Below are positions 35,301-59,376 of a DNA stretch of 64,000 bases, one piece after another. Source of the DNA: a virus (taxonomy: Duplodnaviria > Caudoviricetes). The notes beneath the pieces are model-generated. The model worked only from the letters and a program-made list of their open reading frames with translations, was not told the origin of the DNA and did no database searches. The stretch's first letter is position 1, and every line of letters begins with the position of its first letter. Position numbers and translations under genes: made by a program. The stretch covers positions 1 to 64,000 of the IMG/VR virus record IMGVR_UViG_651703002_000001, one strand, 5' to 3'.

Positions 35301-35408
35301 TCGAACGTAGTGAGACGGCGCAGCCGGTTCGTTTCACTCACATTTCTAATTATAAAGTTTCTATTAATATATTATAGAACTCTATAATTTGATTGCACTT
35401 GAAACTAT
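35301..35408. repeat. Copy 1 of ~110-bp hairpin/palindrome element (inverted repeat of 59265-59376)
   Basis: 39-bp stretch identical to the reverse complement of copy 2, with flanks nearly identical. Confidence 0.9.
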
Positions 35409-35419
35409 CCTACAGACAC

Positions 35420-35452
35420 AAAGAGCCTATCCCGAAATGGATAGGCTCTTTT
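35420..35452. terminator. Terminator after gene 35
   Basis: AAAGAGCCTATCC-CGAAAT-GGATAGGCTCTTTT. Confidence 0.8.
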
Positions 35453-35456
35453 ATTT

Positions 35457-38400
35457 TTAGTAGATTGCAGGTTTCCATATAGGAGACGTTATATTTAGAC
35501 CAACACCAATCGGTCTGAATGATATCACCTTATAACTGGTAGGTTTCATCCAATCTTCAAGCTCTTGAGATTTTTGAACAACATAATTTCCGTTACCTTT
35601 TGAAGCAAATACCTTCAATGGAACTTTACCCATAAAAACTACCTCAATTTCAGTAAATGGAGTAACGTTACCTTCAAACTCTATAATAACTCCGTTTGAA
35701 GGAAGTCCCTCTACTATCTTAGTTAATTTATAATTATGGATATAAAAGTCGTCTTTTAATCTTCCGTTACTTGCTACATCACCATAAGAACCATCCCATC
35801 CAATTATACCAGACGGTAATGTGGTTGTTCTGATCTTCTTATTATAAACTAGTGTGTTCTGTATTGTAGCGTCTATTGGTTGTACAAATCCAGTTTTAAC
35901 TAATTCATATCTTCTGGAATCATCTCTGGTAAGTGATGTTTCTGTTAATTCTACGGTATCTAATTGTCCCGTGAAGTTAACACCACATCGATCCGATAAG
36001 CTCCCATAAATGTGAGTGTAGTTTGTACTCGTTCTTGCTTTATTAGCTGTAATTATTACGTTTGGATATACATAATCTACAACAATATCAAATGGAGATC
36101 CTAATGCAATTCCGTGAGTCAAATTAAGATTAACCCTTTGGGTGTTTGCATTCCTAATGTTAAAGTTTAATGTAGTATTAGTCACTGTTAATTTAATAGC
36201 ATTCGCAACATCCGAGCAATTTAATAATTCCCCAGCAGAAAAGCTTTTTCCAGTAAATCTAATTCTGTATGCTTTCTCATTAGGGATCCAACTAGGAAGA
36301 ATATCCATATATTTTCCTGATATATTCGGAACCCATGCGCTCATGTTATTACCTATCATTTGCGGTTCGTAAAACTCATCAAAGAAGTAACTTTCGGATT
36401 GAACATTACTACCTATTCCATCTGTATTGGTTACATATACAACCATACTTCTCAGAATTACAGTATCCCCAATTCGCGCATTCGGAACACAAATATAAAC
36501 TCCAGAATCATAGTTGGTCGCGGTATGATCTGATATCAATATACCTTTATATCTTCCGGCTCCCAATGATTTCATAGTATCGCCAACACCAACAGACGTA
36601 CCATAAACATCTTTCAACAATACAGGCTTTGTAGATTCTATATCATATTCTATTCTAAATTTTCCCCGAGAAGGTAAATTTAAATGGTATGACATTCCAC
36701 CCTCAGAAACATCCTTAGTAAATCTGAAACTATTATTACTTAGAATGGTTATTGGATTATTTATAGAATCGCTCATTTTCCATTTACGGACGTCTACAAA
36801 ACTATATACTTTGCTTGACTGACCATTTAAGTCAACCATACCAGTTGAGTAAGAGTTTAATCTAGATTCATATATGTTCTTATATTGTCTTAGGTCTTTA
36901 TCCGCAGATATTGAAATATCCCATATTTTACCTCTCAGTATATTAACACCGTTATATCTTGCACCGATTCTTCTAACTACGGAATTTAGGTCCATTTCAA
37001 TAACTAAGCTATATGGAATACCGTTTTCTATTACAACCACGTCACCAGATGCCGAAGTTGGAGACTTTCCATTAATAGACACGATTTTATAGTTTGCCGA
37101 AGTGTTTATAGTGTTATTGGATTTTATATATACCCACCCACCTTGCAACTCTTGGGTATTACTGCTTCTACCCTCGATTATATACCCAGTAGTTGATTGA
37201 TATTGAATAAACTTTAAAGTTATATATCCTTTATTATTGATAGAATATACCGGGGGAATATCAACCCAAGAACTTCCATCAAAATTAAAAGAAAAGTTTC
37301 TATTCTTAACCCAGTCAATATTACTTGGTTTTGTTCCGTGCAATACCGGATCAGTTATACAGTCAACATCAAATTCTAGCTGGGCCATGCTTCCCGCAGT
37401 TATCCAATTATCAGCACCAGCTTTAAATGCGGTTAGATGCCAAGTATTTAAAAATCCTGCGTTTGTATTTTTAAATGCAGTAACTTCGTATCTATGATTC
37501 ATTTTTACGTTGGGATGTAAAGTTGCACCATTGTTTTTAACTATAGTGACAAACGCCTTAGCACCTTCTTTCATTCCAGCGGGTATTAAATTCGAACCAG
37601 TACCACAATATAGCCACCCAGAACCACCATTAGGAACTATGTTACTTCCAGAATAACTCATATTCCCACCGGGGCTAGTTCCCTTAACGAAATCAAGTTT
37701 TTCAGATGAACTATAATTGTAATATCTTGAGTTATTCGGATCACTCATATCTTGGTAATCTGAGGATATTACATATCCGTCCATTTCATTACCAACCAAT
37801 ATTGATTCTAATGTCCTAATTCTGGTTGCTGTAATTGTTGTAGTTCCTACTAAAACGTCATCAACATAAAAATCAACGTTAGTGTTATCAACAACCATTT
37901 TATATAGGTATTCTTTATTACAAGAAACATTTGCCTCTTTGAATATAGTTATACCATTAAAAATCAATAGGTGACCCATACCGTTCGTATATTTCTCAGA
38001 CGTACTGCCAATGAAAAATGTATCATCGGTGCCTGAACCATTACGAATTCCAGAAACATCTGTATTTGAATATACAACAGAAGTTAAATATGTAAATTTC
38101 AGACCCAATATAAGAGTTGGTAGAGTTATATATTTTCCAGACCCATAAGTGAAATGAGGAAAACTAACCGGTTCCCAATTACCATATTCAAAAGAAGTTA
38201 CGTTTTTCTCTAAAAAACTTCCAACTATATTACCGGATGTTTCTTTAGCGTCTTCTGTAATAAATCCCCATCGACCAAAGGATCCTTTCCCCGGCTTTGA
38301 TATATTTGGTTTTTTCCTATAAACAGAAATACATCTAGTACCAAATGTTCCTTGATATGAAGATTTTATAGGCCATGCGGTTGCGTATATTCTCATATTA

Positions 38401-39242
38401 TCAATTGTACTAGGGATGACTATTTCGCCGTATTTATATACCCAACTACCAGACGAGTCAGATAGATCAACGAAATCAGAAGTAACTGATGTATTCCCTC
38501 TATATCCCATAAAATACAATCTTATGGATTCTCCGGAATCCGCAGCCAAATCGTTTCTATACATATCGACACTAATTCTTAAAGTTTCTCCGGTATTAAC
38601 TACCAGACTAGCCAAACTTTGAGAACCGTTCATATATCTAACAATTTCCGGATTTGTTGGGGTTTCAGATATATATTCGTTTTGATCATACACCAAAGCA
38701 TTTCCGTAACCAGCAACACCAATATCAGAAAATGTATCAAATATAGATTCTAGCGAAACTTTAATATCACTGGATACTCCAATCATTTCTACCATAATTT
38801 TCTTTAGTCCGGTATCGAATATTGCACAATACCTTGTTGAAGATGTACCATTAGATGAATTCCAATGGTTTTCCCATCCAATATTACCAATCTTTTTAAA
38901 TACCGCATTTATTGTACTATTTGTGGTATTTGTCCCTTTTGACTTCATAAGGACAATACCAGCACTCAAAGATGTTAGCCAGCTATCAAACCGATTTACG
39001 TCAGTTTGAATAGAGAAATCAAATACATCTCGAACCCCTACAGATAGGTCCGGTAATATCTGTATACACTCAAGACCATTTCGATCTGAAGGTATAACAG
39101 AGAACCCGTCTATTGATACGATTTGGGGTTCTGTTCCATTTTCGGGAAATATCTTAATTTGATGCAATCCAGAAAAATTTTCTGATAGTGCATTCGCCTT
39201 TATGCCAGCACCTGACACACTCGAAATAATAAGTTCCGCCAT
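35457..39242 (-). CDS. 35: Long tail fibre hinge/connector gp35-like, greatly enlarged
   Basis: Directly downstream of gp34; N-terminal region resembles gp35 (FDTFSDIGVAGYG); 1261 aa, beta-rich. Confidence 0.7.
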   Translation of the reverse strand: MAELIISSVSGAGIKANALSENFSGLHQIKIFPENGTEPQIVSIDGFSVIPSDRNGLECIQILPDLSVGVRDVFDFSIQTDVNRFDSWLTSLSAGIVLMKSKGTNTTNSTINAVFKKIGNIGWENHWNSSNGTSSTRYCAIFDTGLKKIMVEMIGVSSDIKVSLESIFDTFSDIGVAGYGNALVYDQNEYISETPTNPEIVRYMNGSQSLASLVVNTGETLRISVDMYRNDLAADSGESIRLYFMGYRGNTSVTSDFVDLSDSSGSWVYKYGEIVIPSTIDNMRIYATAWPIKSSYQGTFGTRCISVYRKKPNISKPGKGSFGRWGFITEDAKETSGNIVGSFLEKNVTSFEYGNWEPVSFPHFTYGSGKYITLPTLILGLKFTYLTSVVYSNTDVSGIRNGSGTDDTFFIGSTSEKYTNGMGHLLIFNGITIFKEANVSCNKEYLYKMVVDNTNVDFYVDDVLVGTTTITATRIRTLESILVGNEMDGYVISSDYQDMSDPNNSRYYNYSSSEKLDFVKGTSPGGNMSYSGSNIVPNGGSGWLYCGTGSNLIPAGMKEGAKAFVTIVKNNGATLHPNVKMNHRYEVTAFKNTNAGFLNTWHLTAFKAGADNWITAGSMAQLEFDVDCITDPVLHGTKPSNIDWVKNRNFSFNFDGSSWVDIPPVYSINNKGYITLKFIQYQSTTGYIIEGRSSNTQELQGGWVYIKSNNTINTSANYKIVSINGKSPTSASGDVVVIENGIPYSLVIEMDLNSVVRRIGARYNGVNILRGKIWDISISADKDLRQYKNIYESRLNSYSTGMVDLNGQSSKVYSFVDVRKWKMSDSINNPITILSNNSFRFTKDVSEGGMSYHLNLPSRGKFRIEYDIESTKPVLLKDVYGTSVGVGDTMKSLGAGRYKGILISDHTATNYDSGVYICVPNARIGDTVILRSMVVYVTNTDGIGSNVQSESYFFDEFYEPQMIGNNMSAWVPNISGKYMDILPSWIPNEKAYRIRFTGKSFSAGELLNCSDVANAIKLTVTNTTLNFNIRNANTQRVNLNLTHGIALGSPFDIVVDYVYPNVIITANKARTSTNYTHIYGSLSDRCGVNFTGQLDTVELTETSLTRDDSRRYELVKTGFVQPIDATIQNTLVYNKKIRTTTLPSGIIGWDGSYGDVASNGRLKDDFYIHNYKLTKIVEGLPSNGVIIEFEGNVTPFTEIEVVFMGKVPLKVFASKGNGNYVVQKSQELEDWMKPTSYKVISFRPIGVGLNITSPIWKPAIY

Positions 39243-39257
39243 TTTAAATCCCCAATT

Positions 39258-39284
39258 AAAAAGCCACCCCGAAGGATGGCTTTT
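39258..39284. terminator. Stem-loop between 34 and 35
   Basis: AAAAGCCACC-CCGAA-GGATGGCTTTT. Confidence 0.6.
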
Positions 39285-39286
39285 GT

Positions 39287-42200
39287 TTAACTAATCCAAA
39301 CAAAGTCTACAGACTTGGTTACTGGGTTTGCTCTTATCTCTAAGAATTCCCCGTTACCAACTGCTATCCTAAGTTTATTTAGGGTTGTAGTTCCAGAAAC
39401 CGCAACGTCTCCATTTGCAGTCAATGCCTTTATAGAGTTGATGATCAACTCTCCGGTCATAGTATCACCGCCCTTGAATACCCGAGTTCCGGATGTGTTA
39501 TTAACATCATCGATCACAGAGTCGAGGTAATCTTTACGGATCGCGTCTTCTGGTTCAACTGGGGTAGTGGTCATTATTTTAACCTGACCAGAAACCCGTA
39601 GATCTCCGTTAGGTTCAAATCGACTCACGTTTGCAGGAGAAGCCAATCCGTTTGGACGGATAGACAATCCATTTAGAGAACCAAATGATATACTTTCATC
39701 AAGACCTATACTTATTCCACTCTTAGATGTATTACCCATCCAGATATTGTGAACACCATTTTTCTTAAAGTAAGTATCTGCGTTGAATGTTTTCTGACCA
39801 GTAATAGTTTCGTTAACTCCACCCGCAGCCTTAACATAACGAATTTCGGTGTAACCGTAACGAGTTAAGTGATCATTATGAGTCGGGTCAAATCCACCAT
39901 TTGAAACGTTATTTGTAAATACCGCATTACCATTTCTGTTTAGTGTCCATACTCGGTAATATGAACCTCCGGCATCTTTAGCGTTAACAACTAACGGACC
40001 ATCAACCGCATTAACACCTATATCAAGTTGTTGGCTAGTTACCCCACCTTTATAGGTCAACATGGTTATCTGTGAAGTACCACGTTCATCCACCAATGTA
40101 AGGGCTGCACCATTACCAGATATTAACGGGTTAGCACTAAATGTCATAACTCCGGTAATTGTCTGAGCGATAGTTCTACGAACCCAATCTGAAGAAGGAA
40201 CTCTAACACCACCCTCATCCATTGCATCCGCACTAACCGCAACAGCCCGTTTAGGTAAAAAGTTCATAAGAGCTGTGTTTAATCCTCTAGGAGATACAAC
40301 AATGTCCCCATGGGCATAACTTGAAAGAGTCCGAGTAGAACCAGCAATGTCGTTACCTTCAAACACGGAATTCGCCACGTTATTGTTCGTCAATACCGCA
40401 GTCATACCAACACCATATCTGGCATCTGTCATTCGGTAACTAGTACCGGATCTGACCGAGTTCAGATTAGTCAAAGGTGTTACTGCCTTGGTGTTATTTG
40501 TACCGGTATCAACATCACCTTGTGTGGCTAAGTACAATATACCAGTCTGGCTTGTTGAAGCCATACGCGCCGAAAGCTTTCTAGGAGTCAAGATCACATC
40601 GTCTCTAGAACCAACAGACATATCATTTGACTCTGCTTGTGTGGCGATTCTAGCAGTTCCTCTTTGGATTTCTGTAGGTACAACAACACCAAACTGTTGA
40701 CCTTGCCAGATATTTCCTGTAGAAGTAAGACCGTCATCCGCGACAACAGTTAGACGCTCACGAACCAACCAGTTTCCAAAAGTTTTAGGAGACACAAAGA
40801 ATCTATCGTGTAGGGTTCCTGCATCTACTTCTGCTTGGGTAGAGGTTTCACCCAAACCGGTTCTGGTTTCTGTTGCGGTACGGCTAACCAAACCTTTCGG
40901 GGTTACATGCACGTTGTCATCAGCCGGTGGAGCCATGCTAATCACTTCAGCCGCAGTTGCTGCCCGAGTCAAACCGGTCATGGCTGACGTTGCTTGACGA
41001 CCGTTTAAAGTGGTTGCAGTAACTACCAACGGACCATTTGCATTATCAGCCGCACCTGTGTTAACCTCGTTTTGGTTACCAACGAATACCATCCCTTGGG
41101 AGAATTCAGTTGCTACCTTTTCAAACAGGGTTTTAGGAGTTACTGCATTAGAATGGTCTGTGAAGTCATGAACCCCAGTACCTTTAGTGGTTCTAGTTGG
41201 TTGTTTTGTTCCACCAAAATTGACAAGACCAATCAAACCCGGCATAGTCTCGGTAGATATACGACCTGCTAATGTTTGTGGAGTAATTGCAACCTGACCC
41301 CAGTTTTCGCCAGATCCTGACTGCGCGTTAGCTTGTGCTTGAGTAGCAACCTTAAACACACCTCTCATTGAGGTAGTTCCTAACCGGTCATTTAGTAGAA
41401 ACGGGGTAATTGCTACACCCGACCAAGCTTCATCATTCAGGTTTCCGGTAGTTGCTTTTGATTCTAGGTTAGTAGATAATCTAATTATACCACGTCTGGT
41501 TCCTGTTGCCGTTTTGTTAGCTAAAGGTTTCTGAAGTAACGAAATCCTCACAATCTGGGTTTTGACCAGTGGAATATCTTCTTTATTTTTGTTAACACTA
41601 GCTTGTGATGCAATCGAAGCCATACCATAAAAATCTGGAACGGTTCTATCTACTCGGTATGGAATTGTTGTCATGGTCACTAGTGCCCACACATCATTTC
41701 CAGATCCTAACGCATTTTTAAAGTATACAAATTCCATCTGTTCGCCACGGTTATTAATGGCAAATGTCTGGGTTTTTGTAATGTGACTAGGAAGGTCGGT
41801 AAGTAGATCTCTATATGCACTAATTCTAGGATTTGTCAACGTATTTCCATCAGGTAAGAAATAATCGTTGGTACTTCCTGCATCAATAGACAAGGTTAAG
41901 CTAGAACCGTTGACCATATATCGTGTGTCAACAAACAGACTATCCCCGTTTGCCGCATCTTTTGGAAAAGTTATCTTTACTTCAGTTGAGGTTTGTGTGT
42001 ATACTACCAACTGGTCATTCGGAGAAGAACTGTAAGTTGCGGTTTTTACACTTTTCCAACGACTCATACTGTCAGAGTCGAAAACTCTCCAAGCGTTAGC
42101 GTTACGGTCAAAAACTAGGATACCCCAATCGGTGGAATCAAATTGAGCAGTTTTAACAGATGGTTGACCTGCAATAACAATTATGTTATGCGTACTATCT

Positions 42201-42982
42201 GGATGAACTGATATTGTTGTTTTCGTTACAGGGTTCATACCATCGAGATCGTAAGTTGTTACGGTATCTCCATGATTTGCATATTTGGGCAAACCTATCT
42301 TTATTCCTCCGGAATATTGGGTTTCCCGCATTAGTTGATCCCCGACCATAGCCTTGTAGTAAGAACCTGCCAGATATGAACTATTGCTTATAATTTTCTT
42401 GTTTGTGTCGCCTCGGTACTCTACTTGTGCGATCCACTCACTACCACTCAAAATAAAATATACCGCAGAATATGGAGCGGTGATTTTGAATACCGCAACG
42501 CCAGAAATGGTTCTTCCATTTCCATCAACATCAACGGTAAAATCGTGTAGGTTTGTTCCATTATCACGGATAACTACCATATCACCATTAAGAGCTTGAG
42601 CCGGTAGCGTAAATCTTATGTCTTGTACTGTAGATTGAACTATGATATGCTCGCCCGATTGAATCGTTGTAAGAGCTGGTGCGTTAGTTGTTACAAGTCT
42701 CCAAGATGGATCGGTACGAACCGGACGCCATCTAATAGGGTTAAAATCTTCTGGGGTTGTAATATTTACCAAACTAACATAAACTCGGTTGTTATAAATA
42801 ACCGCAAAGTCCTTCTTATACGTGCGGGCTTTGTCATATTGTTGAATTGTATTTTCATCAATAAAAAACTTTACGTTAACTCCATCTAAAGGAGCTGTTA
42901 TATCTGGGTAACCAACGTTTATGATAGACTTACCAGCGGCATCTAAGCCATCCGTAACTCTAAAAGCAATGTTTGCTGCCAT
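39287..42982 (-). CDS. 34: Long tail fibre proximal subunit gp34
   Basis: FRVTDGLDAAG N-terminus; repeated ATQAE...VTP..L motifs; divergent from rnh. Confidence 0.93.
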   Translation of the reverse strand: MAANIAFRVTDGLDAAGKSIINVGYPDITAPLDGVNVKFFIDENTIQQYDKARTYKKDFAVIYNNRVYVSLVNITTPEDFNPIRWRPVRTDPSWRLVTTNAPALTTIQSGEHIIVQSTVQDIRFTLPAQALNGDMVVIRDNGTNLHDFTVDVDGNGRTISGVAVFKITAPYSAVYFILSGSEWIAQVEYRGDTNKKIISNSSYLAGSYYKAMVGDQLMRETQYSGGIKIGLPKYANHGDTVTTYDLDGMNPVTKTTISVHPDSTHNIIVIAGQPSVKTAQFDSTDWGILVFDRNANAWRVFDSDSMSRWKSVKTATYSSSPNDQLVVYTQTSTEVKITFPKDAANGDSLFVDTRYMVNGSSLTLSIDAGSTNDYFLPDGNTLTNPRISAYRDLLTDLPSHITKTQTFAINNRGEQMEFVYFKNALGSGNDVWALVTMTTIPYRVDRTVPDFYGMASIASQASVNKNKEDIPLVKTQIVRISLLQKPLANKTATGTRRGIIRLSTNLESKATTGNLNDEAWSGVAITPFLLNDRLGTTSMRGVFKVATQAQANAQSGSGENWGQVAITPQTLAGRISTETMPGLIGLVNFGGTKQPTRTTKGTGVHDFTDHSNAVTPKTLFEKVATEFSQGMVFVGNQNEVNTGAADNANGPLVVTATTLNGRQATSAMTGLTRAATAAEVISMAPPADDNVHVTPKGLVSRTATETRTGLGETSTQAEVDAGTLHDRFFVSPKTFGNWLVRERLTVVADDGLTSTGNIWQGQQFGVVVPTEIQRGTARIATQAESNDMSVGSRDDVILTPRKLSARMASTSQTGILYLATQGDVDTGTNNTKAVTPLTNLNSVRSGTSYRMTDARYGVGMTAVLTNNNVANSVFEGNDIAGSTRTLSSYAHGDIVVSPRGLNTALMNFLPKRAVAVSADAMDEGGVRVPSSDWVRRTIAQTITGVMTFSANPLISGNGAALTLVDERGTSQITMLTYKGGVTSQQLDIGVNAVDGPLVVNAKDAGGSYYRVWTLNRNGNAVFTNNVSNGGFDPTHNDHLTRYGYTEIRYVKAAGGVNETITGQKTFNADTYFKKNGVHNIWMGNTSKSGISIGLDESISFGSLNGLSIRPNGLASPANVSRFEPNGDLRVSGQVKIMTTTPVEPEDAIRKDYLDSVIDDVNNTSGTRVFKGGDTMTGELIINSIKALTANGDVAVSGTTTLNKLRIAVGNGEFLEIRANPVTKSVDFVWIS

Positions 42983-43019
42983 TGTGTAAATCCTCGTATT
43001 AAAAATATATCCACTTATG

Positions 43020-43027
43020 TATTTAGG
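43020..43027 (-). promoter_or_regulatory. Late promoter CCTAAATA for gene 34
   Basis: 38 nt upstream of the 34 start; the same motif precedes 23, 24, 40, inh and uvsW. Confidence 0.7.
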
Positions 43028-47448: not shown

Positions 47449-47451
47449 TAT

Positions 47452-49008: not shown

Positions 49009-49034
49009 CATTCAATATACGGGGGAGTAAAATC
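49006..49034 (+). promoter_or_regulatory. Sigma70-type promoter TTGACA-N17-TAAAAT
   Basis: Perfect -35, 17-bp spacer. Confidence 0.6.
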
Positions 49035-49061
49035 CCCCATACATTCAAAGAGGAATATATT

Positions 49062-49248: not shown

Positions 49249-49851
49249 ATGAGTATTCGTAAATTCAAATTCAAGAACGTAGAATTTTTCAAGTCTTTCA
49301 TTAGTAAACATGATGAACTTCGTGGGGTTTTGTATTGGCATCATCCATTTGAAGTGGAATATGACGAAGATTTTGGTTCTATTCATAATATTAAAGATCT
49401 TATGGACCAATGGCACACAACCGAGTTTGGAACTCCTTTCTTCGGACATAACGAGATCAAAGAAAATCTTATTGAGATTTACGACTGCGAATATATGAAT
49501 AATATAGGTATGTCTCGGGATGATTATTGGAAAGAGGTAATGAATCGCCGTCAGCCCGAATGGTGTGAACTCGACAGATTGAATATGATAGCTTCTCACT
49601 TCTTCCATGAAGATGAATCAAAAGATTTTTATTATGGTGGGAAATTGTCTACATTTCTTCGGGAAGCAAAGCGCCCATATGGTAATAAAGATAAACCGCA
49701 ATCAATTGCATACACCCTTGGTTGGGATTGGGCTCGAAATTTGTGTCATGATATGAAAGGGCTTCCTGATGATGTTAAAGAAGCCGCAGAAAACCTACAT
49801 AAAAAACTTATAGAACAAGTAGAAGAGAAGGAAAAGGATGAGCGAGAGTGA
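49249..49851 (+). CDS. Hypothetical protein
   Basis: AAGGA RBS; 200 aa. Confidence 0.65.
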   Translation: MSIRKFKFKNVEFFKSFISKHDELRGVLYWHHPFEVEYDEDFGSIHNIKDLMDQWHTTEFGTPFFGHNEIKENLIEIYDCEYMNNIGMSRDDYWKEVMNRRQPEWCELDRLNMIASHFFHEDESKDFYYGGKLSTFLREAKRPYGNKDKPQSIAYTLGWDWARNLCHDMKGLPDDVKEAAENLHKKLIEQVEEKEKDERE

Positions 49852-51771: not shown

Positions 51772-51806
51772 AAAATCCCAAGAGATTCAATCTCTTGGGA
51801 TTTTTG
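51770..51806. terminator. Bidirectional terminator between uvsY and uvsW.1
   Basis: AAAAATCCCAAGAGATT-C-AATCTCTTGGGATTTTT between convergent genes. Confidence 0.85.
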
Positions 51807-51809
51807 TTT

Positions 51810-52082
51810 TTAGAAGTCTTCCACTTCTTGACCATCTTCTTCGGCGGCAAACGCTTCACGGCGACCATCTATGGCATCACGAATTTGAATGTCGTCTGTA
51901 TCCGAAATGGTAACGTTCTTGATACGAGAGGTGTAATAACTTTCAAGTTCATCAAGTCCCTTTGGAGTTAGACAAGACATAATCTTACCCAAGAACTTTT
52001 CTATACTAACTGATGGTTTATCAGAACCTTCAACCTCTTCCTCAACTTCTTCTTTTATAAGCATATAATCTTTGAAATACAT
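51810..52082 (-). CDS. uvsW.1: UvsW.1
   Basis: KIMSCLT..GLDELE.YY..R...DTDDIQIRDAI. Confidence 0.88.
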   Translation of the reverse strand: MYFKDYMLIKEEVEEEVEGSDKPSVSIEKFLGKIMSCLTPKGLDELESYYTSRIKNVTISDTDDIQIRDAIDGRREAFAAEEDGQEVEDF

Positions 52083-53587
52083 TACAGTATAACCTCTTTA
52101 ATTTGATATTCGAAATGTTCAGAATTGTACCGTTCAATGCGATTCAATCCATGTTTGTACAAAAAGTTTTTATGATTATACTTGACAGAACCGGGTTTAC
52201 TATTTTTTGATTCCGTACAAAGGTTATCTATAATATCCCACAGATGAGCAAGTAGTTTAGAATCGTGTTTTCTTAAAACCCGACCTATAGACTGCAACGT
52301 TAATACTTTGGATTTCAAACCAGAGCCAAATATAACGTGATGTAATTTCTTTATAGAAATACCGGTCGCAAATATACCATAAGACGCAACGATGATAATT
52401 CCGTCCCCAGCTTCGGCGGCAACTTTTAGCGCGTCCCGATCAACAGTCTTAGTATCACCATTAGCAAAGAATACCTTATCATGCTTCTTACATAGTGCCT
52501 CATAAAGTTTCTTTCCATGGGCTTTATGTCTAAAAAGTATTAAGGTATTTTCATTATTTACCTTGCTTAATTTAAGAGCCAGCTTACATACAAACGCATT
52601 ACGCTTTGTATGTTCTTCCATAAATGTCACTTCTTGTTGATACTCAATACCTTTAGTAACTACACAATCTTCTTTAGGATATCTCAGGAACAGACAATTA
52701 ATTTTTAGGTCTGTTACTTGTCCCTCTTCCATAAGCTGTTTTGTACTTACCGGCTTATATACATCACCAAATACCCCTACATACGACATAATATTACATT
52801 TACCGTCTTTAAGGGACCCACTCATACCAAACTTAAAAGGGCATTCGTTTAGATTTGTTATGATATTCTTTATCTCAGATCCTACGTTATGACATTCGTC
52901 AATCATAAGCATACCGAATTGTTTAAACCAATGAGCCGGTTGTTTAGATGCACTTTGCCAAGTAGAAACGTAGATAGGGCACTCTGAATCTTTTCTCTTA
53001 CCTGCCATAATACCATGAGTAAATGACGGGCTTATGAATCCATAATCGTTGAAGTCATCCAACATCTGAGTAACCAACGATGTTGTAGGAACGATTAATA
53101 GAACTTTCCCGCTATAATTAGTGATATACCAATAGCAAAGTAAAGCAGCGATTAGAGATTTACCCGCAGACGTTGGAAGGTTTAATATTCCACGATTTTT
53201 TGTGATCGCATAATAAACTGCATCCGCCTGATACCAATGAGGGGTAATAGGTTCACCTTTGCTCATAATTTGGATACCATTCAACCATGCATCAAATTCT
53301 TCTCTACTTACAAAATTAGGTTCTGGATTGAAATCAGAATCCTTTGTGAAGTCGTATTCATTTTTAGCGCAATATTTTTCTAGGTGATTAACCAAACCGT
53401 ATGGAAATTTACCATCAGGTTGTAATAGCCGGATCCTTCCGTCCCAACTACTATATTTAAATTTAGGGTTGAACCTCGCACCGCCATCCATTTCAAAAGA
53501 GTAATATTCTCTCAATTCTCTAAAAATGTCTTGATCGGTTTCAATTTCAGCATGACTATAATCATGGAATTTTACGTTAACTTTCAT
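52082..53587 (-). CDS. uvsW: UvsW RNA-DNA/DNA helicase
   Basis: PTSAGKS, DECH, SGS, QSIGRVLR. Confidence 0.96.
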   Translation of the reverse strand: MKVNVKFHDYSHAEIETDQDIFRELREYYSFEMDGGARFNPKFKYSSWDGRIRLLQPDGKFPYGLVNHLEKYCAKNEYDFTKDSDFNPEPNFVSREEFDAWLNGIQIMSKGEPITPHWYQADAVYYAITKNRGILNLPTSAGKSLIAALLCYWYITNYSGKVLLIVPTTSLVTQMLDDFNDYGFISPSFTHGIMAGKRKDSECPIYVSTWQSASKQPAHWFKQFGMLMIDECHNVGSEIKNIITNLNECPFKFGMSGSLKDGKCNIMSYVGVFGDVYKPVSTKQLMEEGQVTDLKINCLFLRYPKEDCVVTKGIEYQQEVTFMEEHTKRNAFVCKLALKLSKVNNENTLILFRHKAHGKKLYEALCKKHDKVFFANGDTKTVDRDALKVAAEAGDGIIIVASYGIFATGISIKKLHHVIFGSGLKSKVLTLQSIGRVLRKHDSKLLAHLWDIIDNLCTESKNSKPGSVKYNHKNFLYKHGLNRIERYNSEHFEYQIKEVIL

Positions 53588-53618
53588 GTGAATCTCTCAT
53601 TATATTCTAATACTATAT

Positions 53619-53638
53619 TATTTAGGGATCTCTAAATA
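53619..53638. promoter_or_regulatory. Back-to-back late promoters TATTTAG-GGATCT-CTAAATA
   Basis: CTAAATA on both strands, facing uvsW and the 53686 ORF. Confidence 0.65.
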
Positions 53639-53685
53639 AAGTAGGGAATGAGAACTCATTCCTTCCTATAAGTAGGGGAATAATC

Positions 53686-54051
53686 ATGTTAATAAACAAT
53701 AAATTGTTTAAGGACACCCTACCCGTACTATCAGTTGTCATTGCAATTTGGGCCTCGATATTCTCATATAATGAGTTTATTGCAGACGCTCGCCAAGTTG
53801 CATTGAAAGAGCAGATCACAACCCACATGGACAAGTCTATAGACAACCTTAGAACGGAGATTAAAAGTCTCCCAAATAAGGAGTCGGTGGAAACTGCCCA
53901 ACTAAGGGCTATGCTATACAGTAAAGACTTGATCGATGAGGCTAATCGGGGGAACCGACTTGAGATTGCTGAACTGGAAAAGCGTATTGGTGATATGGAA
54001 AGCGCAAGTATCGAATCGAAAGATCGTAAAAAGCGTAGAGAAGACGGTTAA
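53686..54051 (+). CDS. Late membrane-anchored coiled-coil protein
   Basis: N-terminal TM segment (LPVLSVVIAIWASIF), helical C-part, own late promoter and terminator. Confidence 0.65.
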   Translation: MLINNKLFKDTLPVLSVVIAIWASIFSYNEFIADARQVALKEQITTHMDKSIDNLRTEIKSLPNKESVETAQLRAMLYSKDLIDEANRGNRLEIAELEKRIGDMESASIESKDRKKRREDG

Positions 54052-54067
54052 AGGGTTTGTCTAAGTG

Positions 54068-54098
54068 GGTCACACGCGAGAGCATGTGACCTTTTTTT
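54068..54098 (+). terminator. Terminator
   Basis: GGTCACACGC-GAGA-GCATGTGACC + T7. Confidence 0.8.
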
Positions 54099-54108
54099 AT
54101 AAAAAGTG

Positions 54109-54137
54109 TTGACCTATCCATCTGGTTTAGGTATTAT
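54109..54137 (+). promoter_or_regulatory. Early sigma70-type promoter TTGACC-N17-TATTAT
   Basis: A-rich UP element, 17-bp spacer. Confidence 0.65.
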
Positions 54138-54168
54138 CTATCTCGTTGAGACGCAAAAGGAATCAAGA

Positions 54169-54651
54169 ATGATGAACAAAGAATTTGAATTTATGTTTGA
54201 TATGGATGGTGTTCAGGCCGATTGGTGCCATTCATTTGATGTTGTGTACGGTTCCGGTGCCTCTGAAATTTTTGATAGTCTTGGAAAAGAAGAAAAGAAT
54301 GTTGTTAAGGCAGAGCTTGCAAATGGTGATTTTTATCGTCACCTTCCAGTAATGGAGAAAGGTGTGGCTCTGGTGATAGAACTGGTTCGGCGCGGTCGTA
54401 AAGTTAGATCCTGACCAGTGTTGGTCGTCAGAACCCAAAAAACGTAGTTCGTCAGAAGAGAGCATGGATCTCTGATGTGTACCCCTGCTGACGTTGCTGT
54501 TGTTCTTCTGGAAAATTTCTATTATACTCTGTGTAGTGAAGATAAAGCAGCGTTTGCCCGTCCTAATGTGTGTCTGGTAGATGACCGAGCGAAAAGCCGT
54601 GAACCTTTCATTGCTGCCGGTGGCGTTGCTGTTGATATTGTTGACCTTTAA
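54169..54651 (+). CDS. HAD-family 5'(3')-deoxyribonucleotidase-like protein (frameshifted)
   Basis: FDMDGV motif I; downstream frames give ILTS and LVDDR..AAGG. Confidence 0.7.
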
Positions 54652-54663
54652 GAGGAATTTGTT

Positions 54664-54981
54664 ATGTTGATTGAAAGTCTGTCTGTTGGTGCGGTTTGTC
54701 TTGGTCTTGCCTATGGTCTTGACAAATTTATGGGAACTGGGTTGTTTAAATGGAAAGAGACCCCAAAAGATATCAATTTAGTTATCTCTAAGGAAGACCA
54801 AAATCGAAAATTGAAGAATGAACTCAATTTGGGTAAGATTGTTAATGAACAAAAAGTTAAAAACAAAAATTATTACGGTGGTCATAAAGCAAAGGTTATC
54901 CATAAAGAGCATAAGCTTAATAAACCGCATCCAGTAATTGTTAATTTTGTAAATAAATTGTATAAGGAAAACCAAAAATGA
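54664..54981 (+). CDS. Hypothetical protein with N-terminal hydrophobic segment
   Basis: GAGGA RBS; 105 aa. Confidence 0.6.
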   Translation: MLIESLSVGAVCLGLAYGLDKFMGTGLFKWKETPKDINLVISKEDQNRKLKNELNLGKIVNEQKVKNKNYYGGHKAKVIHKEHKLNKPHPVIVNFVNKLYKENQK

Positions 54982-55295
54982 ACCAAGAACAATACCAACA
55001 CATCTATTTTTCAAAATGTAGCACATCGATCTGGCGAAACAATAACGGTCGTGATGCAGAGGCTTTGCCTAAAAACAAACCACTCGACTTTTTGAATGAA
55101 CAATGTGAACTTGTAAATTCTGGTAAAAAGTATTTTGTATGTACCTGTTGTGGTACAGCAAAAGATAAAGAGCAACTTATCGGAAATGTATTTGCAGGAT
55201 ATTACTGTTATGAATGTCACGATAAAACCCCGCAGATCCAACGGAACCTTCGTGATAGTAAAAATCTGGATTTTATGACTAATTTAATTATATGA
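54978..55295 (+). CDS. Hypothetical Zn-finger protein
   Basis: CTCCG...CYEC. Confidence 0.6.
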   Translation: MNQEQYQHIYFSKCSTSIWRNNNGRDAEALPKNKPLDFLNEQCELVNSGKKYFVCTCCGTAKDKEQLIGNVFAGYYCYECHDKTPQIQRNLRDSKNLDFMTNLII

Positions 55296-55305
55296 GGAAG
55301 AATAA

Positions 55306-56313
55306 ATGATTTTTGTAAAATATAACTCTCTGGAAAACCACTATCGTCAGAACGTAATTGATGCATTCGTTAATGCTGGGTACACCGCCCCCGGAGTTGA
55401 TTGGGTAGTAATGAAAAACCTCCACGGAACTAATTTTCAACTGGCAGTAGATGAATCCCATGTACAGGCTGGGCGGCGAACCGACCTTCTTGGAGATTTC
55501 GACCAGTTCTTTGAAGCGGATCTCATTGTAAAACGTTATGAAGAAAAGGCTAGGGAAGTATTCAACGAAATTAAACTGTGTATTGATAACGTAACACAAA
55601 TTACCATTTTCGGGGAATATGCGGGTAATCTTACCTCTGGTAAGAAGATCCAAAAAGAAGTAGAATATGGGGATCAAGATTTCTACGTATTCGATATCAT
55701 GGTTTTTGTAGAAGGGGAAGAGTCTGGTTACTACCTACACCATGATGCAGTTATGGAGCTTATTAAAAATAAATTCAAACATGCACCAGTGATCTATATT
55801 GGGAGTTTTGATGGTGTTACCAAACTTCCGAATGACTTCCAATCCATAGTAATCCCGTCAAACAAGGCTGGTAAATTTGGATTGGTTGAAGGGACTGATA
55901 ACATTGCAGAGGGTTTTGTTGCAAAAACTGCTAATGTGGTGTATACCCGATTTGGTCGGGCAATCTTCAAATCTAAAAACTCCAAATTTACCGAGAAAGG
56001 TAAATCTGATAAACCTGTTAAGGTGAAGGAACCTCTTGGAGAATCCGACCTTGAAATGGTACATGAGATCTCAGAATATCTAAATGTAAATCGTCTCAAA
56101 AACGTCCTTAGTAAGATTGGGATCCCGACTACCAAGGAATTTGGTAAGGTTGCTGGTAACCTATCCAAAGACGCAATTGAAGATTACACCAAGGACACAG
56201 AAAAGAGTCTCCGCGATGCAGATCGCCCGTCTGATGTAGGTAAAGCAGTGAACAACCTTGCAGGGGAACTTGTTCGGGATAACTGGATGAACATTTTGGA
56301 CGGAAATTTCTAA
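55306..56313 (+). CDS. rnlB: RNA ligase 2
   Basis: KYNSLENH, HGTNF, FGEYAG, FYVFDI, EGFV, KSKNSKFTE. Confidence 0.92.
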   Translation: MIFVKYNSLENHYRQNVIDAFVNAGYTAPGVDWVVMKNLHGTNFQLAVDESHVQAGRRTDLLGDFDQFFEADLIVKRYEEKAREVFNEIKLCIDNVTQITIFGEYAGNLTSGKKIQKEVEYGDQDFYVFDIMVFVEGEESGYYLHHDAVMELIKNKFKHAPVIYIGSFDGVTKLPNDFQSIVIPSNKAGKFGLVEGTDNIAEGFVAKTANVVYTRFGRAIFKSKNSKFTEKGKSDKPVKVKEPLGESDLEMVHEISEYLNVNRLKNVLSKIGIPTTKEFGKVAGNLSKDAIEDYTKDTEKSLRDADRPSDVGKAVNNLAGELVRDNWMNILDGNF

Positions 56314-56332
56314 AATAAATTAAAAAAAGGGG

Positions 56333-56361
56333 TTGCATCGGTCAGCCCCTTTTGGTATCTT
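56333..56361 (+). promoter_or_regulatory. Early promoter TTGCAT-N17-TATCTT
   Basis: A-tract UP element, 17-bp spacer; downstream sequence resembles the 54109 promoter. Confidence 0.55.
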
Positions 56362-56398
56362 ATTCATATCGAAACAAGAGATGAAAAGGAAGAGAATC

Positions 56399-57025
56399 AT
56401 GAACAACGAAAAATTCGAAATTCTGATGAGTGAAGCGGTTGAGATGGTTGAAGCTGGTTTTGTTTCTAAAGCCGGTCAAAAAAGAGCCCTCGCACTTTGC
56501 ACATCAATGATGGATATGATTCGTGCGGAATTCTCCGGTGCATATCTCGACCTTTACAACTACGAAGAACGTGACTTGCCAGAAAATCAAGCGGCTTGTG
56601 ACCTGTATTATGCCCAACCGAACACCGCGACTTTCGCAAAGTATTTGGTAAAGGCAGAAACCGCAGTGGGTCGTATGGATAAAGAGGTTGTTAACTCCCT
56701 GATTGCTCTTGGTGAACAAGTTGTTGCGATGATAGCAACAATCAAGGCCGCAGAAATCAAAGCTCCCGAGCCGAAAGTAAGCGAGCGCGAGATTGCAGTT
56801 AAGGAATCCATCATGGACCTGATGAAACGCCGTGGTGAACAATATAACCGTTGTCTGCGCCTTGATGAAATGTTCGGGACTATGGGTATCACCGCGAACG
56901 TTCACATTGTTCACGGTCACAAAGGAACTGTGTTTCTTCGCGCCTTCTACTACATTCTCGGTCATCTGACCCCCCTGAGTGTGATTATCGCAGCGATTGA
57001 AGAAGCTAATAAGCGTAATAAATAA
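56399..57025 (+). CDS. Hypothetical early protein
   Basis: AAGGA RBS, early promoter, high-expression codon usage. Confidence 0.7.
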   Translation: MNNEKFEILMSEAVEMVEAGFVSKAGQKRALALCTSMMDMIRAEFSGAYLDLYNYEERDLPENQAACDLYYAQPNTATFAKYLVKAETAVGRMDKEVVNSLIALGEQVVAMIATIKAAEIKAPEPKVSEREIAVKESIMDLMKRRGEQYNRCLRLDEMFGTMGITANVHIVHGHKGTVFLRAFYYILGHLTPLSVIIAAIEEANKRNK

Positions 57026-57030
57026 GAAGA

Positions 57031-57067
57031 CAAGAAACGTTGGCTTGAAAAGGTCAACGTTTCTTGA
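57031..57067. terminator. Long stem-loop after early gene
   Basis: CAAGAAACGTTG...CAACGTTTCTTG inverted repeat. Confidence 0.55.
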
Positions 57068-57095
57068 CAATTAACTTAAAAGGTAATTTTCAAAA

Positions 57096-57757
57096 ATGAA
57101 AAAACTAATGATTGCTGTCATGTTTGCTTTTCCAATGTTTTCACATGCGGCATCATTTGATTGTGCGAATGCTTCAACTACGGTAGAACTGACGATCTGT
57201 GATGACGAAAAACTGAGTAAACTTGACGAAGAACTTAATAAAGTATATAAACTTGCACGTATACACGACCCGTCAATTGTAAAGTCACAAATTGATTGGG
57301 TTAAAATTAGAAATAAAGCACTTCAGTTGAGCAACTTGATGATCTACATGAATCAAGAATTGCGATTCTAAAGTCTGTTGTAAAACCCACAATCAAACCA
57401 GTTATGATTCGTAATGAATCAGCAGAAATATCATCTTTCTCTACATCGGATAATATAAATACAGTTATTGAGTCCGTTAAAAATAACAAGAGCGATAATA
57501 TTTCAGTTGATGGTTTCGTTTTTAATACAAAGAAAGTAGATTACAAATCCCCCGAGTGGTTGAGTAATTGCGTTAAAGATGAAATAAAAATGACTTATAA
57601 AGTTAACTTTTCCGGAAGAACTGATAAAATGACGGAATATAAAATTATCAACGCACTAACAAACGCAAAATTGAAACAAACCATGGATAGTATCAATGGC
57701 GGTTATGTGACAAAAGACGAACTGTTTAACAATTGTATGTCTGGGATAGGTTTCTGA
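57096..57757 (+). CDS. Secreted LprI/DUF1311-like protein (frameshift near 57320)
   Basis: Signal peptide + ASFDC..A...E.TIC....LSKLD..L...Y...Q.DW..R; the 57404 ORF appears to be its continuation. Confidence 0.6.
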
Positions 57758-58020
57758 TGAACAAGAAAGCCCGTGAGCTGATGATAGAGCTAATTGGAAG
57801 AGGTATTGATTGTAGGGTACTAACTTCAAACACAAGCACGTATATAGACGTACAGGGGCATTTGGTGAGGGTTTCTGACCATAGGGGTCATTCGAAATTC
57901 AAAGGTACTCAGATAAGAAAAGATATCGGGTACTCACGAACTAAATATGGTATGATATTTGGTTATGGTGAAATTCACATGGCTATAAAACATATCATTA
58001 AGGAAATAACACCTAAATAA
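57757..58020 (+). CDS. Hypothetical protein
   Basis: 87-aa ORF (RVSDH motif) overlapping the previous stop. Confidence 0.55.
   Translation: MNKKARELMIELIGRGIDCRVLTSNTSTYIDVQGHLVRVSDHRGHSKFKGTQIRKDIGYSRTKYGMIFGYGEIHMAIKHIIKEITPK
58012..58019 (+). promoter_or_regulatory. Late promoter CCTAAATA for inh
   Basis: Upstream of GAGGA RBS. Confidence 0.7.
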
Positions 58021-58044
58021 TATAACAAAAGAGGAAAAATCCTA

Positions 58045-58848
58045 ATGGCACGTAAAAAAGAAGAAGAACTTAAAGAACTAGATCTGGGTGTAATTAATGA
58101 AATTATAGAAGAAAATAGCGCCCCAGACGCAAAGGTTAAAATTCAAGTTTATGCAAAAGAATGCGGTTTCAAGATCGGTAAATCTAATATTTCGGTTGAT
58201 GATATGGTAGTCAAACTTCTTGAAATGGCTGACGCAAAGGAAAATCAAAAACTAGAATATAGCCCACTAAACAAGATCAAGACTCCCGAGGTATATTCTG
58301 AGGTAAAACAGATTACTCCGGAAGAAGAACTCGAACTGGCAGAAGATATTGAACAATTCGATCCTGTTGTTGAAGAAAAAGAACCGTTCCTCAATCCGGG
58401 GGAGGTAGTATCAATTAATGATATTCCGGAAGATATTAAAACTGAAATTGTTGATGCTATTAAATCTGGTGAGGTTGTCATTACGGCACCGACAAGCCCA
58501 ATTGAAGAGGTGATTACAGGTATTCACTCATATGTTCCTTCATTAGGAACAAGTCCATGGTTTCCACCAGAACAACCAAAAGAAATAGAAATTAATTTTG
58601 AACCTGATCTTTCTGGATTCACTCCACGTATTAACTTGATTGGGGCTGTTGGTCAACAATATATGAACTGTCCTTATTGGATTTTGGATTGGATTTTGGA
58701 AAATGGAAAGGATTGGAAAACTAAAATCGAAACACATCCGAGAGAAACAGATCATCCTATTCTGAAAACTGTTTTATACTATATTCAGATCCATGGTAGT
58801 GTTACTGTTAGGGAAAGTCGAAACTCACGTTACCATACTCTTTATTGA
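58045..58848 (+). CDS. inh: Inh inhibitor of prohead protease
   Basis: C-terminal PYWILDWI...LYYI...GSV.VRESRNS conserved in Inh. Confidence 0.85.
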   Translation: MARKKEEELKELDLGVINEIIEENSAPDAKVKIQVYAKECGFKIGKSNISVDDMVVKLLEMADAKENQKLEYSPLNKIKTPEVYSEVKQITPEEELELAEDIEQFDPVVEEKEPFLNPGEVVSINDIPEDIKTEIVDAIKSGEVVITAPTSPIEEVITGIHSYVPSLGTSPWFPPEQPKEIEINFEPDLSGFTPRINLIGAVGQQYMNCPYWILDWILENGKDWKTKIETHPRETDHPILKTVLYYIQIHGSVTVRESRNSRYHTLY

Positions 58849-58854
58849 TGATTA

Positions 58855-58880
58855 AGCCATCCTTTTTAGGGTGGCTTTTT
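58855..58880 (+). terminator. Terminator after inh
   Basis: AAGCCATCCT-TTTT-AGGGTGGCTTTTT. Confidence 0.75.
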
Positions 58881-58930
58881 AATATCCCTAAATAAAAAGG
58901 CCATATTTGGCTATAACAAGGGTATTAAAA

Positions 58931-59200
58931 ATGAATTATAGATTCATAAAGATTGACAACAATTTTGTATTACTTCTTGGTTATAAAGGTGGGATACAAA
59001 TGATTAGAAAATTGAGGGATGGGATTGTATCTGACAATATCTATGAGTTTATTCGTTTGATAAGCCAGTACCTAGATGATGGGTTTATTGTGATCGTGTA
59101 TGATCTGGAAGAGAATAGATTCATTAAGATAAATGAAGAAAAGATTGATATTTTTTTAATTTTCATTATATCATGTAAAATGATGGTTTATGAACTATAA
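58931..59200 (+). CDS. Hypothetical late protein
   Basis: CCTAAATA at 58887-58894, AAGGG RBS, terminator at 59207-59229. Confidence 0.55.
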   Translation: MNYRFIKIDNNFVLLLGYKGGIQMIRKLRDGIVSDNIYEFIRLISQYLDDGFIVIVYDLEENRFIKINEEKIDIFLIFIISCKMMVYEL

Positions 59201-59206
59201 GTTAAC

Positions 59207-59229
59207 AGGAACCTTTTGGTTCCTTTTTT
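59207..59229 (+). terminator. Terminator preceding repeat copy 2
   Basis: AGGAACC-TTTT-GGTTCCT + T run. Confidence 0.75.
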
Positions 59230-59264
59230 GTATGTATTTTAACCTAATAATGGTTAAAAAGTAT

Positions 59265-59376
59265 ATAGTTTCAAGTGTAATCAAAGTATAAAGTTCTATA
59301 ATATATTAATAGAAACTTTATAATTAGAAAATGTGTGAGTGAAACGAACACGGCTCCGCCGACTCGCTTTGCTCGA
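59265..59376. repeat. Copy 2 of ~110-bp hairpin/palindrome element (inverted relative to 35301-35408)
   Basis: Reverse complement aligns with 35301-35408. Confidence 0.9.

Follow-up and report, generated by a model that had tools for sequence, protein, structure and literature searches.

In a virus record of 235,229 bp (IMG/VR record IMGVR_UViG_651703002_000001), which represents the genome of a T4-like Aeromonas phage and whose first 64 kb are referred to here as the window, two inverted copies of a ~110-bp non-coding element located 24 kb apart raise the question of what they accomplish. A preliminary description of the window proposed either a replication origin or a site-specific recombination site that could invert the intervening segment. 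We found that the two copies, A and B, are only two of seven in the genome, with the other five lying beyond the window, and hence that the element is not a two-copy feature. The locus number, the regular spacing, the tightness of the family and an origin-like architecture point to a role in initiation at the DNA level, and we tentatively regard the cassettes as origin-like promoter-plus-unwinding elements, an interpretation that we favor while holding it short of probable.

Within the window, the 39-bp core of the element is matched exactly at 35343-35381 (+ strand) and 59292-59330 (- strand), as compared to no matches in 100 dinucleotide-preserving shuffles. When aligned with gaps over ~110 bp, copy A (35300-35408) and copy B (59265-59377) are 88% alike, and the sequence flanking one copy has no similarity to that flanking the other, in agreement with the proposal that the neighborhoods are unrelated. 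A repeat search of the window recovered the pair as inverted arms of 66 nt (35343-35408 and 59265-59330, 95% complementary), which constitute the longest inverted repeat of the window. Each copy was also said to contain a 36-bp imperfect palindrome; the palindrome exists, but its span is ~48 bp. The palindrome arms of copy A (35345-35359 and 35378-35392) are 15 nt each, 87% complementary and 18 nt apart, and those of copy B (59281-59295 and 59314-59328) have the same geometry.

Searches of the whole genome by BLAST, by an nhmmer profile and by fuzzy motif scans agreed on exactly seven copies at six loci, and none of the three detected degenerate extra copies in the 235-kb genome:

copy A, 35.3 kb, + strand
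copy B, 59.3 kb, - strand
copy G, 102.15 kb, - strand
copy F, 102.29 kb, + strand
copy D, 136.5 kb, + strand
copy E, 174.5 kb, + strand
copy C, 227.0 kb, - strand

In the phage collection, the element occurs at 67 places in 17 Aeromonas phage records, every one of them unannotated. The closest named record, avDM6 (genus Ishigurovirus), contains seven copies in a whole-record search, while CC2, Assk and ZPAH1 contain six loci each and AS-sw contains five. The same loci are occupied in all five of these relatives; for example, locus A lies between the nrdA-adjacent gene and the long-tail-fibre gene, and locus F lies between the tail-tube initiator gene and a gp53-like hub gene. An exact scan of IMG/VR with a pattern joining a promoter-like hexamer to the conserved tail box (both described below) returned only the present clade (two genomes) and four metagenome contigs. 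One metagenome copy (L055:6557-6678) consists of hexamer plus tail alone, ~85 nt upstream of a gene. In KVP40, there is neither an intergenic gap nor an element upstream of the hub gene; the KVP40 gene-34 region was not located. Misassembly of one copy, which the preliminary description had considered, is excluded because the same loci are occupied in the five relatives and because contigs of four public runs break at the element. Specifically, when contigs from these runs (X1-X4, from four studies) were placed on 34200-36200, they broke at 35340-35407, where the summed contig depth is 13-20 times that of the flanks and where the loose ends consist of the flanks of other copies. These runs were used as assembled contigs only and have no bearing on inversion, transcript ends or copy-number gradients.

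To describe the anatomy of the element, we used a MAFFT alignment (A2) of 36 copies, comprising seven from the present genome, seven from avDM6, six each from CC2 and Assk, four from AS-sw, five from ZPAH1 and one from a metagenome contig; one partial AS-sw copy, one ZPAH1 copy and the partial L055 copy lie outside it, and MAFFT offsets the right palindrome arm by one column between the two sequence types found in the family. Each copy is composed of four modules, namely a G+C-rich head stem-loop, an A+T-rich dyad or palindrome, two outward-facing TATAAT-like hexamers and a 20-bp tail box. In the window these modules are placed as follows:

35300..35342, + strand: copy A head, a G+C-rich stem-loop with the 13-mer CGAACGTAGTGAG at 35302-35314 and an inner CGGC/GCCG hairpin
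35345..35392, either strand: copy A A+T-rich imperfect palindrome, with A or T at 41 of 48 bases
35349..35354, - strand: copy A left hexamer TATAAT, facing the head
35359..35379, either strand: copy A central dyad TTCTAT-N9-ATAGAA, from an inverted-repeat scan
35383..35388, + strand: copy A right hexamer TATAAT, facing the tail
35388..35407, + strand: copy A tail box TTTGATTnCAnnTGAAACTA, the best-conserved block of the family
59266..59285, - strand: copy B tail box
59285..59290, - strand: copy B right hexamer TATACT
59281..59328, either strand: copy B A+T-rich palindrome, with its dyad at 59294-59314
59319..59324, + strand: copy B left hexamer TATAAT, facing the next + strand gene, which starts near 59419
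59335..59377, - strand: copy B head stem-loop

The tail box has seven mismatch-free matches in the genome and no near-copies elsewhere in it, and its columns are invariant in the alignment. In a comparison made by eye only, the tail does not fit the sigma-54, sigma-32, DnaA, IHF, FNR/CRP or LexA consensus sites. In copies A through E, the head is located upstream of the right hexamer, while F and G carry other G+C hairpins. A consensus fold of 14 heads contains 10 pairs, two of them with compensatory changes; compensating changes are seen in the inner CGGC/GCCG stem, and the outer stem contains G.U pairs when read from head to tail. Folded as RNA, the sense strand has a z score of -1.8 and the antisense strand one of -0.1. 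Pairings that would permit a head pseudoknot (CGAAC/GTTCG and GTGAG/CTCAC) exist, but the consensus fold favors a simple G.U-containing hairpin. The palindrome is 85% A+T in a genome that is 63% A+T, and as a DNA hairpin that of copy A has a predicted energy of -4.8 or -6.1 kcal/mol (z -1.6 or -2.6). The dyad half-sites TTCTAT/ATAGAA are retained in all lineages, whereas the spacer between them is lineage-specific and uniform inside a genome.

The two hexamers resemble sigma-70-type -10 boxes. In the left hexamer, the equivalents of positions -12, -11, -9 and -7 are invariant in 36/36 copies while -8 and -10 vary, and in the right hexamer (TATAnT) the fifth position takes all four bases; the two thus have in common an unchanging -12, -11 and -7 and a variable -8 over the 36 copies. 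When the variable positions of the two hexamers are taken as a pair, they do not covary, a result that favors two distinct -10-like boxes over a hairpin maintained there by selection. A sigma-70 consensus scan found no -35/-10 pair inside the cores, the lone hit being a 9/12 match that starts in the copy B tail. TTCTAT is located 18-20 bp upstream of the hexamers and agrees with TTGACA at only 2 of 6 positions.

The element is better conserved than its surroundings. Copy A is 96% identical to its avDM6 counterpart while its flanks are 89% identical, against a range of 84-89% for flanks between these two genomes, and between ZPAH1 and the CC2 group the element is 83% identical and the flanks ~72%. 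All six loci are retained in three lineages (the present genome with avDM6; ZPAH1; the CC2 group) with a flank identity of 70-75%, or ~28% flank difference. The preliminary description is partly borne out: the element is a dispersed and strongly conserved non-coding cis-element, and the sequence pattern is compatible with recognition at the DNA level. The center of the element, however, follows the genome rather than the locus: one sequence occurs throughout the present genome and avDM6, and another throughout the other four genomes. The identities within and across these two types are:

paralogues within a genome: whole element 84.5%, center 87%
orthologous loci across the two types: whole element 67.2%, center 50%
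non-orthologous loci across the two types: whole element 67.3%, center 50%

Because copies within a genome are more alike than orthologues across lineages, and these orthologues are no more alike than non-orthologues, the comparison indicates that the cassette copies undergo concerted evolution and that it is complete. Two rearrangements coincide with the element. The present genome and avDM6 differ by a small gene, gained or lost precisely at the tail end of copy C. In AS-sw, a hybrid junction lies at the element: on one side is the head-side flank of locus E, and on the other at least 1.6 kb that match the tail-side flank of locus B with 98.8% identity. This duplicated stretch of at least 1.6 kb occurs in AS-sw at both L022 (120.5 kb) and L027 (6.3 kb); the record is labelled partial, and the hybrid junction is either a true recombinant or a misjoin.

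We then considered the distribution of the loci. On the circularly permuted map, the gaps between the six loci are 23.9, 43.0, 34.3, 37.9, 52.5 and 43.6 kb, and six intergenic gaps chosen at random rarely match this evenness, whether judged by the standard deviation (P(sd <= observed) = 0.0012) or by the smallest gap (P(min >= observed) = 0.0075), the overall range of P being ~0.001-0.009. Even spacing was found in the five genomes examined, four of them relatives, with a density of one locus per 32-39 kb. A hunt in distant phages, which began at the hub-gene locus, identified a related but diverged cassette upstream of the hub gene in Aeh1 (genus Cinqassovirus). The Aeh1 cassette has in common with the present one the 13-mer CGAACGTAGTGAG, the box TTGATTTCA-TTGAA and part of one palindrome arm, but the modules are ordered differently, with the box between head and palindrome and a second G+C hairpin past the palindrome. 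Aeh1 contains eight copies at seven loci, of which only two, at the hub gene and vs.1, match loci of the present genome; the remainder lie beside gene 47, gene 15, nudE and an ADP-ribosylglycohydrolase gene, with one in an early array. The Aeh1 gaps of 24.9-43.6 kb are nonetheless even (P = 0.0003 by the smallest gap and likewise by the standard deviation), phiAS5 and PX29 have seven loci each with spacing P values of 0.001-0.011, and the Aeh1-type element is found at 6-9 places in each of 13 records. We regard the preservation of spacing in spite of the change of loci as the best single indication of a genome-scale role. In the Aeh1 record NC_005260, three tiny open reading frames (ORFs) are annotated over element copies (Aeh1p059, 49489-49671; Aeh1p285, 187049-187153; Aeh1p349, 230599-230766) and are probably not genes.

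These comparisons also bear on the level at which the element might act. The orientation of the copies relative to the flanking genes is mixed (three sense, four antisense), as it is in Aeh1, and the Aeh1 box is situated on the opposite side of the palindrome; both observations argue for a DNA-level rather than an mRNA-level element, and an mRNA-level cis-element is unlikely. A gene-specific regulator is likewise unlikely, since no fixed genes accompany the cassette across genera and since its best-kept part, the right hexamer with the tail, faces no gene in 5/7 copies, the tail being directed there at a gene 3' end or terminator.

If the cassettes are DNA-level initiation sites, they would most likely be replication origins of the T4 promoter-plus-unwinding kind. 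In such a scheme, the 85% A+T dyad would serve as the melting region, and the two outward sigma-70-type -10 hexamers without a -35 box would, with help from a phage factor, give rise to short primer or R-loop transcripts. A protein may bind the invariant 20-bp tail box and the G+C-rich stem-loop may mark the cassette boundary, while gene conversion would maintain the likeness of the copies. That the dyad melts, that the hexamers drive transcription, that a protein binds and that replication starts at the cassettes are all predictions from sequence features. The T4 map offers a parallel in position. Three loci, which lie beside gene 53/5, at gene 34 and in the vs.1/tk region, fall in the neighborhoods of T4 origins, namely oriE (near repEA, around gene 5), ori(34) and oriC (near rI.-1, around tk-vs), and we count this in favor of an origin function.

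Comparison to published systems reveals further likenesses as well as differences. The minimal T4 oriF and oriG are ~100 bp in length and consist of a middle promoter and an A+T-rich unwinding element, T4 has at least five origins per 169 kb, several of them beside late-gene clusters, and how most of them fire remains unclear (PMC3016281). The present cassette resembles T4 oriF/ori(uvsY) and oriG/ori(34) in being a ~100-bp unit with a sigma-70-type -10 box, no -35 box and an A+T-rich unwinding element; in recurring several times per genome, with one locus per 32-39 kb as compared to ~34 kb in T4; and in lying in part beside late-gene clusters; one locus is at gene 34 and another beside 53/5, in the neighborhood of T4 oriE. 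The cassette differs in that its copies are near-identical, whereas T4 origins have no common motif, a point made in the preliminary description that agrees with the review (PMC3016281). The iterons of T4 oriE are also a repeated non-coding motif near 53/5, with a proposed replication role and conserved in syntenic regions of relatives (PMC3016281), but they form a local cluster of 12-nt direct repeats rather than a dispersed 110-bp cassette.

A second difference concerns the transcription factor. T4 oriF and oriG use MotA, and T4 middle-mode MotA/AsiA promoters resemble the cassette in having a -10 hexamer (TAnnnT) without a -35 box and, as a further likeness, an upstream phage-factor site (PMC1524935). 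The present genome encodes AsiA, the anti-sigma factor, at 132122-132349 (- strand, locus L044), but no MotCF or MotA_activ domain was detected in it or in avDM6, CC2 or ZPAH1, while the T4 control scored 7e-71. Conservation of MotA is reported for T4, RB69 and 44RR only (PMC1524935). Without a MotA domain, a different factor would have to serve the promoters lacking a -35 box. The cassette also has no Mot box (TGCTT), and the family is far more uniform and far smaller than a promoter class.

Several observations weigh against an origin function. The unwinding region lies between the diverging hexamers, whereas in oriF and oriG it lies downstream of the promoter. No copy is closer than 7.5 kb to uvsY, the gene that marks oriF in T4. 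GC and AT skew in 5-kb windows track gene strand only and do not shift at copies inside a long one-strand block. Moreover, A+T-rich DNA offers TAnnnT by chance, and the box-adjacent hexamer of Aeh1 is TAACTT in four copies and TAACTC in four, so that the -7 T is missing from half of them. The strength of the hairpin is not maintained across types (z -4.1 in Aeh1 and -1.6 to -2.6 here), and the CC2-type element does not form the long hairpin at all. A role at the RNA level is hinted at by the head, whose best fold is as RNA of one sense and includes G.U pairs. Finally, the spacing tests are not independent across genomes, as the genomes are related.

The main rival, which we consider possible though on balance doubtful, is a PeSL-like regulatory cassette, in which the stem-loop stops transcription, one or both hexamers restart it, possibly with a phage factor on the dyad, and the repeats act as shuffling linkers. 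PeSL and PmSL cassettes are described for RB49/phi1, T4/PST and KVP40/nt-1 (PMC2839356, PMC4122927). Like them, the present element combines a stem-loop, an A+T-rich stretch and a promoter-like box, in the PeSL order of stem-loop, A+T-rich stretch and -10 hexamer (PMC4122927, PMC2839356), and recurs in intergenic regions, in places at indel or recombination junctions; the conservation of -12, -11 and -7 is typical of sigma-70 -10 boxes (PMC1524935). A gene starts 30-140 nt past one hexamer at every locus (~230 nt for copy G), and where the left hexamer faces no gene, in F-type copies, it is the one that has drifted, to TACAGT or TACACT. At locus C of avDM6, CC2 and Assk a gene begins 15-25 nt past the tail, and at locus E one begins ~20 nt past the head. 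The gain or loss of a small gene at the copy C tail and the AS-sw hybrid junction are also in keeping with shuffling linkers, and C, D and E occupy rare large gaps in long arrays of small early genes. The features flanking copies A and B are as follows:

35262..35290, - strand: T4-early-type promoter-like site TTTACA-17-TATGAT, adjoining the copy A head and facing a small ORF (CC2_274 in CC2)
35420..35451, + strand: terminator-like hairpin with a T-run (13 pairs, six of them G-C; compensating changes in relatives)
35457-39242, - strand: long-tail-fibre gene, with its 3' end beyond the preceding hairpin, on the copy A side
59207..59224, + strand: terminator-like hairpin of the upstream + strand gene, 41 nt past the copy B tail
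59394..59400, - strand: CTAAATA late-promoter-like motif, 17 nt upstream of the copy B head and aimed into the element

Other features do not fit PeSL. PeSL cassettes have clear -35 and -10 boxes 17 bp apart and, after them, a start codon with its ribosome-binding site, whereas the cores here lack a -35 box, and a ribosome-binding site with a start codon directly downstream of the tail is found only at locus C of avDM6, CC2 and Assk and, loosely, at F. The early-type sites of the phage have the form (G)TTTACA-N17/18-TATnAT, and such ordinary promoters occur beside G+C hairpins elsewhere in the genome and look different from the cassette. PeSL cassettes are numerous, clustered in hyperplastic regions and directed at the downstream ORF; here the picture is mixed, as C, D and E lie in small-gene arrays, with one indel at the tail of C and one hybrid junction in AS-sw, yet the loci are single, evenly spaced and syntenic. 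The family is characterized by 6-7 loci, mixed orientation and a conserved 20-bp box. There are just seven copies, near-identical over 66 bp and with no graded matches. The best-kept part faces no gene at most loci, the cassette is not tied to particular genes (2/7 Aeh1 loci are common with the present genome), and local regulation does not predict even spacing. A PeSL-like cassette would account for the stem-loop, the hexamers and the indels, while leaving the spacing, the copy number and the box unexplained. We found no description of the cassette family in the literature searched, which did not cover supplementary promoter lists (e.g., that of PMC1524935); the 2010 PeSL paper mentions unspecified 'PeSL-like sequences' near Aeh1 gene 43, data not shown (PMC2839356).

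Separate from the cassette family is an inverted repeat of 27 nt in the window (31855-31881 and 49014-49040, 96% complementary), which forms a GGGGG...CCCCC hairpin. Its 49-kb copy overlaps a perfect TTGACA-17-TAAAAT site and is an ordinary PeSL-like promoter/stem-loop. With regard to late transcription, 24 of 53 CTAAATA motifs genome-wide lie within 60 nt upstream of ORF starts, as compared to ~5% expected, while the T4-form late motif TATAAATA does so in 2/24 cases; CTAAATA therefore behaves as the late-promoter motif of the phage, and a variant late consensus reported for Aeh1 agrees with it (PMC2988020). CTAAATA lies near several copies, upstream of B and downstream of C and F, and just downstream of the Aeh1 copies at 90 kb and 148.9 kb.

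An improbable alternative is that the element is a recombination hot spot, with the A+T palindrome nicked or cut, perhaps once extruded, by gp46/47 or the Holliday-junction nuclease of the phage, the ends seeding recombination-dependent replication and repair homogenizing the family. Such a mechanism would account for the concerted evolution (84.5% among paralogues versus 67% among cross-lineage orthologues, the latter equal to non-orthologues) and for the AS-sw hybrid junction, and even spacing would distribute ends around the genome; in addition, the Aeh1 record names the gene 46 product 'SbcC-like subunit of palindrome specific endonuclease'. However, the CC2-type palindrome is short and weak, no recombinant arrangements occur in four of the five relatives (AS-sw being the exception), and repair normally proceeds from the allelic copy. 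A hot spot would also leave the invariant tail box and the hexamer pattern unexplained.

We consider it quite improbable that the cassette is of no use to the phage and persists as a selfish miniature repeat, either in the manner of a MITE or disseminated by a homing endonuclease. Its structure is composite: the head is inverted in some copies, and in a diverged copy on a metagenome contig (L051:7715-7836) the head sequence is repeated inverted ~30 nt past the tail, so that the core is flanked by 28-nt inverted repeats. A free-standing gene for a SegE-type GIY-YIG homing endonuclease (34224-35120, + strand; PF19835, E 6.6e-30; PHROG 7363, E 3e-138) adjoins copy A, where it lies between an nrdA-like gene (31881-34136, - strand) and the element and is labelled "hypothetical" in avDM6, CC2 and Assk. 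The other copies have no adjacent endonuclease gene, however, and the genome contains no transposase or recombinase. Furthermore, the six loci are stable across lineages at ~72% flank identity, and the element is evenly spaced and better kept than its flanks.

Very improbable, in our assessment, is a family of small or structured RNAs, either transcripts from the right hexamer with the tail as a common 5' end or a structured RNA of head, core and tail. The G.U pairs of the head hairpin are present in one sense only, a terminator lies ~60 nt past the predicted start at copy A, hairpins follow B, E and G, and the CTAAATA motif aimed into copy B is retained in avDM6, CC2, Assk, AS-sw and ZPAH1, and hence in all lineages. 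Nevertheless, Rfam 15 gave no matches at the gathering score in the window, and a permissive Rfam search of 35200-35480 gave chance-level hits only (E >= 0.05), far under gathering scores. The sequence past the tail is not common to the copies, phage translation starts show no excess of the tail complement (7-mer, two observed versus 5.5 expected), the box is on the other side in Aeh1, and an RNA family does not predict even spacing. The hairpin after the E-locus tail (L005:1632-1690; genome ~174,560-174,618) is long, with a stem of ~22-25 bp, and is retained with different sequence in CC2 (L037) and ZPAH1 (L018).

The weakest alternative is inversion of the 24-kb segment. The hix/Hin, gix/Gin and cix/Cin systems consist of serine-invertase sites that are inverted, have an internal dyad and surround a segment with tail-fibre genes. 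Copies A and B resemble hix, gix and cix in being inverted, 23.9 kb apart, with dyad symmetry around a segment that carries tail-fibre genes, but a role as such a pair is scarcely credible given that there are seven copies in both orientations instead of two, that the serine recombinase family Resolvase (PF00239) and the tyrosine recombinase family Phage_integrase (PF00589) have no matches in the 235-kb genome while controls were positive in 12/14 and 14/14 genomes, so that no invertase gene accompanies the sites, and that no relative shows the alternative orientation, the flanks of copy A being arranged identically, beside the tail-fibre gene, in the present genome, avDM6, CC2 and Assk and those of copy B being collinear in the present genome and avDM6.

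Some further features may bear on the quality of the record rather than on the element. To the right of copy B, 59498-59966 (+ strand) encodes a homologue of an intact 162-aa hypothetical avDM6 protein that is broken over three reading frames by at least two frameshifts, representing either a pseudogene or assembly indel errors. A DprA/SLOG-like label that we had given this gene by eye was withdrawn, as the intact avDM6 homologue has no Pfam hit. The gp53-like hub gene (L006:1632-1700; genome ~102,420-102,490) has no in-frame ATG; the ATG used in avDM6 and the conserved N-terminus (TKIDKSALL...) are offset here by one base, which again hints at single-base indel errors. The record also has at least one N, at genome ~210.3 kb.

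Returning to the reading of the cassettes as DNA-level initiation sites, its fuller form, which we hold more tentatively still, is a multi-copy origin system in which 6-7 near-identical cassettes ~35 kb apart would be served by a phage factor, in a genome with AsiA but without MotA, kept alike by gene conversion, with positions that have moved and a spacing that has been preserved. If this is true, these phages would be the first T4-family group with origins recognizable from sequence, and the choice of origin, the spacing and the trans-acting factor would become directly testable. Even if the cassettes prove to be regulatory, three facts are new: even spacing across genera despite mostly different loci, complete concerted evolution of dispersed 110-bp repeats in a lytic phage, and a promoter-like unit lacking a -35 box in a lineage that has AsiA but not MotA. 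These facts concern large phages that are candidates for therapy.

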